A stretch of 64,000 nucleotides of DNA from the NCBI RefSeq assembly GCF_001677475.2, contig NZ_CP015229.1. One strand, given 5' to 3'. The DNA is from Escherichia coli. GTDB taxonomy: Bacteria > Pseudomonadota > Gammaproteobacteria > Enterobacterales > Enterobacteriaceae. Made by a program: the position numbers and the translations under genes. Position 1 is the stretch's first letter, and each line of letters starts with the position of its first letter. Shown one piece after another: positions 21,503-22,157 of this stretch. The notes under the pieces were generated by a model. It worked only from the letters and a program-made list of their open reading frames with translations, did no database searches and was not told where the DNA came from.

Positions 21503-21748
21503 GTGACAACGAAGCACGCAAAAAAACCACAATCACACGCCCTTGATTTGACAGAACACTGGCTGAGGGTGGCGATAAAAATCATCGACCGCAACGCGGG
21601 AGAAGGATACGCGAAAGCGCATCCCGAACTGATAAGCGCATTCATGACCACGGCGGCGGCAAATTTTGCCACACTGACAGAACGGGAGATTGCCGAAGCG
21701 GAACAGGTGACAACCATCAACGTTAAAACCGGAGAGCAGACAGCATGA
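21503..21748 (+). CDS. hypothetical 81-aa protein
   Basis: GTG start with GAGGT SD; stop overlaps next ATG. Confidence 0.5.
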   Translation: MTTKHAKKPQSHALDLTEHWLRVAIKIIDRNAGEGYAKAHPELISAFMTTAAANFATLTEREIAEAEQVTTINVKTGEQTA

Positions 21749-22044
21749 CAGCACAGATAGCGGCTTGCGGGCGGCTGGTGGCTGACCCGCAGTTAAAGAC
21801 CACCAGCAAAGGGACACAAATGGCGATGGCGAGTATGGCGGTTCCCCTGCCGTGCAGCCAGGCAGATGACGGAACGGCGACGATGTGGTTATCTGTCCTG
21901 GCGTTTGGCAGACAGGCCGACGCACTGGCAAAACACCACAAAGGCGAACTCCTGAGCGTGGCGGGTAACATGCAGGTGAGCCAGTGGACAGGCCAGAACG
22001 GCGCGACCGGGCGGCAAAAAAGGTCAACAGGGCCAGGCCACTGA
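21745..22044 (+). CDS. SSB-like OB-fold protein, reading frame interrupted (tail encoded in +1 frame to 22111)
   Basis: GRLVADPQLK...MWLSVLAFGRQADALAKHHKGELLSVAGNMQVSQWTGQNG matches the SSB OB-fold pattern; +1 frame 22022-22111 encodes a Gln/Gly linker ending DEPYGDNIPF. Confidence 0.6.
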   Translation: MTAQIAACGRLVADPQLKTTSKGTQMAMASMAVPLPCSQADDGTATMWLSVLAFGRQADALAKHHKGELLSVAGNMQVSQWTGQNGATGRQKRSTGPGH

Positions 22045-22109
22045 CGCACTGAACAGGGCAAAACAACAGTCAGGGAATGATGAACCGTACGGCGATAATA
22101 TACCGTTTT

Positions 22110-22157
22110 AAATTCTGCAAACAAAAAGATGCCGGAAAAAAATAGATTTTCCGGCAT
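22110..22157 (-). terminator. hairpin with U-tract on the minus strand
   Basis: ATGCCGGAAAA/TTTTCCGGCAT 11-bp stem; T-rich run follows only in minus orientation. Confidence 0.4.

Follow-up and report, generated by a model that had tools for sequence, protein, structure and literature searches.

A 56-nt deletion between short direct repeats very probably accounts for the split single-stranded DNA-binding protein gene of an Escherichia coli phage-satellite island

The window that we analysed is a stretch of 64,000 nucleotides of Escherichia coli DNA (contig NZ_CP015229.1 of assembly GCF_001677475.2), whose backbone proteins are 99.7-100% identical to those of E. coli. It harbours an island that is bounded by a 15-nt direct repeat, CTCTCGTGCCGACCA, at 15602-15616 and 26597-26611 (Table 1). 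The island encodes an integrase, AlpA, an Icd-like protein, a DUF4222 protein, a D5-type primase, a hypothetical protein, a single-stranded DNA-binding protein (SSB), a Phage_cap_E capsid protein, a head decoration protein, an AlpA-like HTH protein, a Nu1-type TerS and PerC. With the EcCICFT073-type PICIs (Fillol-Salom et al. 2018, PMC6092414) it shares int, alpA, a primase-replicase, capsid and decoration homologues, a small terminase, a size of about 11 kb (10-15 kb being usual for the type) and att direct repeats; the assignment to this type is from gene content alone. The terms 'SSB' and 'single-strand' do not occur in the full text of that paper. Comparison with two syntenic islands showed all island genes other than the SSB gene to be full-length and revealed no damage elsewhere in the island.

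The SSB gene forms an operon with the hypothetical gene preceding it, the stop codon of which overlaps the SSB start (ATGA). Between the D5-type primase gene and this operon, at 21214-21460, a 10-nt motif (ACTGTTCACC / GGTGAACAGT) recurs about ten times, in one orientation or the other; this iteron-like array is probably the replication origin of the island. Upstream of the AlpA-like gene, a 20-nt unit that is internally palindromic (AAAACAGTGGGTACCGTTTT) occurs twice in tandem (17461-17500) and may be an operator. The native 3' end of the SSB gene is marked by a hairpin just downstream, which is followed by a T-run when read on the minus strand but not on the plus strand.

Table 1. Position of the SSB locus, its parts and its surroundings. 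Positions are those of the window unless another sequence is named.
Feature	Position	Strand	Remarks
EcCICFT073-like PICI, ~11 kb	15617-26611	+	at tRNA-Pro(GGG), between yejM and yejO
Upstream hypothetical gene, 81 aa	21503-21748	+	intact, 100% identical to relatives
Zero-frame SSB ORF, 99 aa	21745-22044	+	ATG at 21745, TGA at 22042-22044; Pfam SSB match
Deletion junction, single remaining copy of the 12-nt direct repeat GCCAGAACGGCG	21992-22003	+	from alignments and in-silico deletion
Orphaned native SSB 3' end, ARTARPGGKKGQQGQATDALNRAKQQSGNDEPYGDNIPF and stop	21992-22111	+, frame +1 relative to the ATG	linker and C-terminal IPF tip
A6 run	22016-22021	+	zero-frame codons CAA AAA AGG; native frame AAA AAA, Lys110-Lys111
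Hairpin, 11-bp stem ATGCCGGAAAA...TTTTCCGGCAT	22129-22157		18 nt after the native SSB stop
56-nt duplication allele of the SSB gene	L029:1501-1960 (GCA_018835415.1)		117-aa product, found on 5 contigs

A first-pass annotation, made from the letters of the window, had described this locus as a split SSB-like gene, and the start and stop of its 99-aa ORF, its A6 run, the codons read there and all its translations were correct as given. The 99-aa product matched the Pfam SSB family (PF00436) with an E value of 1.3e-13 over model positions 3-91 of 104, as compared with 8.5e-16 over positions 4-101 for intact relatives. The frame at +1 over 22022-22111, which closes with TAA at 22109-22111, encodes GQQGQATDALNRAKQQSGNDEPYGDNIPF, and this segment proved 97% identical to residues 102-140 of intact E. 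coli SSB relatives (tblastn E=1e-21). Because the +1 segment aligns with intact relatives and the zero frame matches Pfam SSB, the split reading is not a product of chance: judging from these matches, we are dealing with a real SSB gene, the two halves of which lie in different frames, and the ...IPF tail announced by the annotation is genuine. The tip itself (...YGDNIPF) is encoded at 22091-22108, beyond the zero-frame stop, whereas intact relatives carry it joined to the OB domain in one polypeptide. Two descriptions needed correction. The 29-codon +1 frame counted from 22022 is indeed open, but the segment in the native frame is open already from 21992, over 39 codons. Likewise, the '99-aa OB-fold protein' is an SSB homologue, but its OB fold is incomplete, the Pfam match stopping at position 91.

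The place and nature of the frame break emerged from comparison with intact relatives. A megablast search with positions 21500-22300 of the window against 5,426 complete E. coli genomes yielded 333 full-length matches. The 40 of these that were listed all aligned in two pieces and spanned 857-858 bases, versus 801 in the window. In three E. coli relatives, the gene is annotated as intact (423 nt, 140 aa, 'single-stranded DNA-binding protein'). The window lacks 56 consecutive nucleotides, at alignment columns 252-307, which encode ...ETRQGWQVIADSVISAR..., and the deletion junction lies 13 nt upstream of the A6 run. The intact E. coli alleles contain an identical A6, read in frame as Lys-Lys (GGC GGC AAA AAA GG; ...RPGG-K-K-GQQGQATD...). 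The homologues in Leclercia, Citrobacter and Edwardsiella are likewise undivided ORFs, with Lys-Lys spelled AAG AAA or with the stretch AAG CGT AAG; since other genera use these spellings, a slippery run at this position is not conserved. Among the best 120 of 753 relatives, most proteins had 136-149 aa, with the conserved motif SARTARPGGKKGQQGQATD read in a single frame, and none of the relatives compared showed a conserved split-frame arrangement.

On the strength of these alignments, the A6 run is not the site of the frame break, which the annotation had located at A6-AGG. A one-base indel in the run (A5 versus A6) was ruled out by the intact alleles, all of which carry A6; the comparison of A6 with A5 in homologues that had been proposed as a check would not have found the cause. 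The annotation's fallback, a 'simple indel', was of the right kind, but it was wrong as to place and size. As separate observations, one relative reads ...KKASRGQATD... instead of ...KKGQQGQATD..., which suggests that two frameshifts immediately past the A-run have compensated for each other and that small indels do arise at this place, and two other relatives are wholly devoid of GGKKGQQ.

The intact alleles closest to those with the deletion are L025 (strain MEW) and L024 (strain 504239). In L025, the 12-mer GCCAGAACGGCG is found at gene positions 248 and 304, i.e. 56 nt apart, while L024 has it at 304 and, at 248, a copy that matches over the first 11 nt and differs in the last base. The missing stretch extends exactly from one copy to the other in these alleles: the length of the deletion equals the period of the repeats, and one copy is left at the junction. 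Deleting in silico the DNA between the 12-mers of L025 gave a 367-nt gene with a single mismatch in 367 to a second haplotype of the deletion allele (haplotype 2, L017; see below), and the same operation on L024 gave 5 mismatches to the window allele. The reciprocal product exists as well. Allele P0004, on L029, comprises two identical 56-nt units and three 12-mers (at 248, 304 and 360), representing a tandem duplication; it is also out of frame, and collapsing one unit restores the intact 140-aa ORF.

Slipped-strand mispairing classically leaves such a footprint, the gain or loss of exactly one period at short direct repeats, and hot spots for deletion and duplication between such repeats are classically described for lacI. 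The SSB locus resembles these lacI-type hot spots in the loss of one repeat period, the retention of one copy, the occurrence of a reciprocal duplication elsewhere and the position of the deletion on alleles with the longest (12-nt) repeat; we noted no salient difference. We therefore consider the following scenario. A parental island allele carrying the two 12-nt repeats 56 nt apart would have undergone slipped-strand mispairing, or an equivalent illegitimate recombination, which would have removed 56 nt and left one copy of the repeat. As 56 = 3x19-1, the downstream sequence would be shifted by one nucleotide, so that the native downstream frame comes to lie at +1 and is open to its own stop. 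The ribosome would then read 13 wrong codons before stopping at the zero-frame TGA, the intact linker and IPF tip would remain as an orphaned open frame, and the new frame across the native Lys-Lys codons would create the A6-AGG 'slippery context' by accident. It is very probable, in our assessment, that this 56-nt out-of-frame deletion between 12-nt repeats, and not a programmed frameshift, explains the split SSB gene. The split gene is then an ordinary mutation, a textbook out-of-frame deletion between short direct repeats. It has little general biological weight, the 'restored tail' being the undamaged 3' end of the SSB gene; it does show the SSB gene of these satellite islands to be a mutational hot spot of plus or minus 56 nt, giving both deletion and duplication alleles.

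The junction was found in none of the 5,426 complete RefSeq E. coli genomes and in no GTDB representative. Independent contigs that do carry it number at least 46; they stem from NCBI isolate assemblies, Logan SRA assemblies and ENA metagenomes, agree fully in their junction DNA and represent two haplotypes. The exact 99-aa product of the window (haplotype 1, P0001) was called on 19-22 contigs, and a sister 99-aa allele (haplotype 2), with three amino-acid differences upstream of the junction and two in the read-through, on 21-37 contigs. For comparison, one intact SSB sequence alone was present on at least 1000 contigs. The lesion is thus real and heritable, but rare; the notion of a private, one-off lesion was dropped once dozens of contigs from draft assemblies and metagenomes proved to encode the exact 99-aa protein.

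Of 367 positions, 14 distinguish the two haplotypes, eight of them in the tail (8 of 90 nt). When read in the +1 frame, six of these eight are synonymous and the remainder cause only 2 conservative amino-acid changes. Twelve of the 14 differing states, including all eight in the tail, also occur in intact alleles. Those private to the deletion alleles in the sequences examined are a Tyr-to-Cys replacement at codon 8 (Y8C; TGC, 21767) in the window haplotype and a synonymous Leu codon in haplotype 2, neither of which is in the tail. The differences between haplotypes would thus be inherited standing variation, acquired through recurrent deletion on different parents or through recombination. 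Since each deletion haplotype is nearest to a different intact allele, recurrence of the deletion appears favoured over a single origin, short-patch recombination being the alternative.

In the islands with haplotype 1, the core from the primase to TerS is within a few SNPs of that of the window, while the ends of the islands differ from the window's, as does, in L012, the integration site. Haplotype 2 (L016-L023, e.g. L017:1-12300) resides in an island with an AAA_25 replicase (468 aa), a 637-aa ClpP-protease/capsid fusion and a DUF1441-type TerS, inserted either at yejM or at cspD/clpS. Each haplotype therefore occupies two or more integration sites, and two unrelated kinds of island harbour the deletion allele, which is no dead-end singleton, a point that tells against our explanation. 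Evidently, the SSB module moves from one island family to another.

To appreciate the consequence for the protein, we turned to an AlphaFold2 model of an intact relative (mean pLDDT 78.6; block means 84-95 up to residue 100). The model comprises strands at residues 3-11, 16-19, 25-36, 44-54, 69-82 and 88-101, with a helix at 55-62 and, after the last strand, a tail of low confidence; the strand at residues 88-101 (pLDDT about 93) is the final one of the OB fold. It superposed on solved SSB OB domains with a target-normalised TM of about 0.8 over about 102 residues. Foldseek gave an E value of 1.8e-9 to SsbA, and sequence matches to SSBs of the PDB went down to 2e-10. The ancestral gene belongs to the homotetrameric SSB family of bacteria, plasmids and phages (PF00436) by sequence and by fold. 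Its intact relatives share with the family the N-terminal OB domain, with the fold of SsbA/SsbB, and the acidic ...D-I-P-F tip; like the family, they have a low-confidence linker and end in ...GDNIPF. They are unlike typical members in being short (140 aa), with a brief Gln/Gly/Lys-rich linker, and in being encoded on phage-satellite islands.

As compared with the family, the window gene is broken: the last OB strand is missing and the tail is out of frame. The deletion takes out residues 87-103, including the whole of that strand, and leaves residues 104-111 garbled. In the 99-aa product, residues 1-86 are native, and residues 87-99 (ATGRQKRSTGPGH) result from out-of-frame read-through past the junction, so the product does not have a complete N-terminal OB domain. 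Were the ribosome to slip by +1 at AAA-AGG, the outcome would be a 121-aa product (...WTGQNGATGRQK followed by GQQGQ...IPF; conceptual junction peptide ...NGATGRQK-GQQGQATDALNR...), from which the strand would still be missing; because the deletion has removed residues 88-101, even a trans-frame slip would yield a gutted protein. A five-stranded barrel deprived of one strand is unlikely to fold. From the model, the 99-aa product is most likely a non-functional remnant, and we infer that neither it nor the 121-aa slip product would be a competent SSB. The Y8C replacement, which is unique to the window allele, affects a residue that 125 of 134 relatives have as Tyr, 7 as His and 1 as Phe; it would fit relaxed constraint and suggests decay.

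Of the other ways to read these data, the one that fares best is that the deletion allele is tolerated or even favoured, either because the SSB is dispensable or because the truncated OB fragment, possibly together with traces of a tailed slip product, has a new role in interfering with SSB partners of the host or helper. The same junction is indeed present in two diverged haplotypes, at several integration sites and in two unrelated architectures (D5 primase with Phage_cap_E, and AAA_25 with the protease-capsid fusion). Furthermore, the haplotype-1 core is nearly identical across contigs with different ends and integrases, so these islands appear to have spread after the deletion. The recurrence of the allele in islands that still spread thus means that the broken gene is tolerated, and the fact that such islands still appear to spread suggests that the island SSB is dispensable. 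However, recurrence is what one expects at a 12-nt repeat hot spot, one that also yields the duplication; the allele is very infrequent relative to intact ones; Y8C points to decay; and the fragment would hardly fold. Taken together, we regard this reading as unlikely, though some residual or altered function of the broken gene in still-spreading islands is conceivable. Its most specific version, namely that the allele is kept or keeps recurring in spreading PICIs for a role of its own, exerted by the 99-aa OB fragment or a 121-aa decoy, is only about half as credible. If it were true, a slip product with an IPF tip and no competent OB fold would titrate host or helper proteins that dock on the SSB tip, and the 12-nt repeats would act as a mutational switch generating the variant.

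The preferred reading of the annotation was a programmed +1 frameshift at CAA-AAA-AGG, producing SSB both with and without its tail: with the A site stalled at the rare AGG codon, the Lys-tRNA in the P site would slip downstream by one base and pair again. The context described is present and shift-prone in principle, as AAA at 22018-22020 can re-pair at 22019-22021 and AGG comes next, and nothing interrupts the +1 frame before the native IPF tip. In this it resembles the prfB site of E. coli (CUU-UGA-C) and the Ty1 site of yeast (CUU-AGG-C), where a re-pairable P-site codon also precedes a slow A-site codon. Unlike those sites, it is not conserved in homologues, it has no SD-like stimulator and its context stems from a frame shifted by a deletion. 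By inspection, the upstream GGGCGG pairs with the anti-SD over at most 3 contiguous bases, short of the 4 bp or more sought for a stimulator; RNA folding around the A-run was no better than that of shuffled sequences (z=-0.10), and Rfam contained no known RNA family matching near it. The text of an E. coli dual-reporter study (PMC2790909) names only four cassettes that significantly exceeded the random control; the pspD cassette, with the identical AAA AGG T in the P and A sites, is not one of them.

The tail is open in both deletion haplotypes, with six of eight differences synonymous in the +1 frame, which might be taken as a sign that a trans-frame product is under selection. All eight are nonetheless standing variation of intact alleles and are uninformative on selection after the deletion; selection on the tail in deletion alleles was rejected for this reason. 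Since, in addition, A6 is in frame in every intact relative and is not kept in the other genera, homologues are single ORFs, the frame is broken by a deletion further upstream, the allele is absent from the complete genomes searched and a trans-frame product would be without the final OB strand, a programmed frameshift is not borne out and we hold it to be very improbable. A weak +1 slip at AAA AGG is plausible from the codons involved, and a trace of tail-bearing 121-aa product is possible.

Finally, a sequencing or assembly error that dropped 56 nt actually present in the genome, the other possibility raised by the annotation, would agree with the absence of the junction from complete RefSeq E. 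coli genomes and GTDB representatives, but it is refuted almost beyond doubt by the recovery of both haplotypes, with identical junction DNA, in dozens of independent isolate, Logan and ENA assemblies and by a loss bounded by direct repeats, which is atypical of read errors.

The deletion between repeats, which remains our explanation, makes this locus a cautionary case: an out-of-frame deletion upstream of a homopolymer run can mimic a recoding signal, as the native frame, though orphaned, is still open. Cases of apparent recoding are decided by aligning the gene with its intact homologues rather than by looking at the run itself.

Minus-strand ORFs of 174 and 177 aa also cover the locus. They were rejected as antisense genes, being spurious, since stops interrupt all three minus frames across the SSB locus in intact E. 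coli alleles and in the other genera.

Elsewhere in the window, close to where the island ends on the right, there is a (GGCT)11.5 microsatellite (26164-26209). The island of L011, otherwise without mismatches over 12.3 kb, has four more GGCT units, indicating that the tract is polymorphic in length. The yejO autotransporter gene adjoining the island (26713-29304, minus strand) is an intact ORF of 863 aa, and the annotation of strain QML220601 lists its counterpart as a pseudogene, frameshifted and interrupted by an internal stop. Outside the island, Rfam matches corresponded to ordinary E. coli backbone, namely the MicF sRNA (51453-51546), naRNA4 (55206-55282) and the L25 ribosomal-protein leader (11799-11824).
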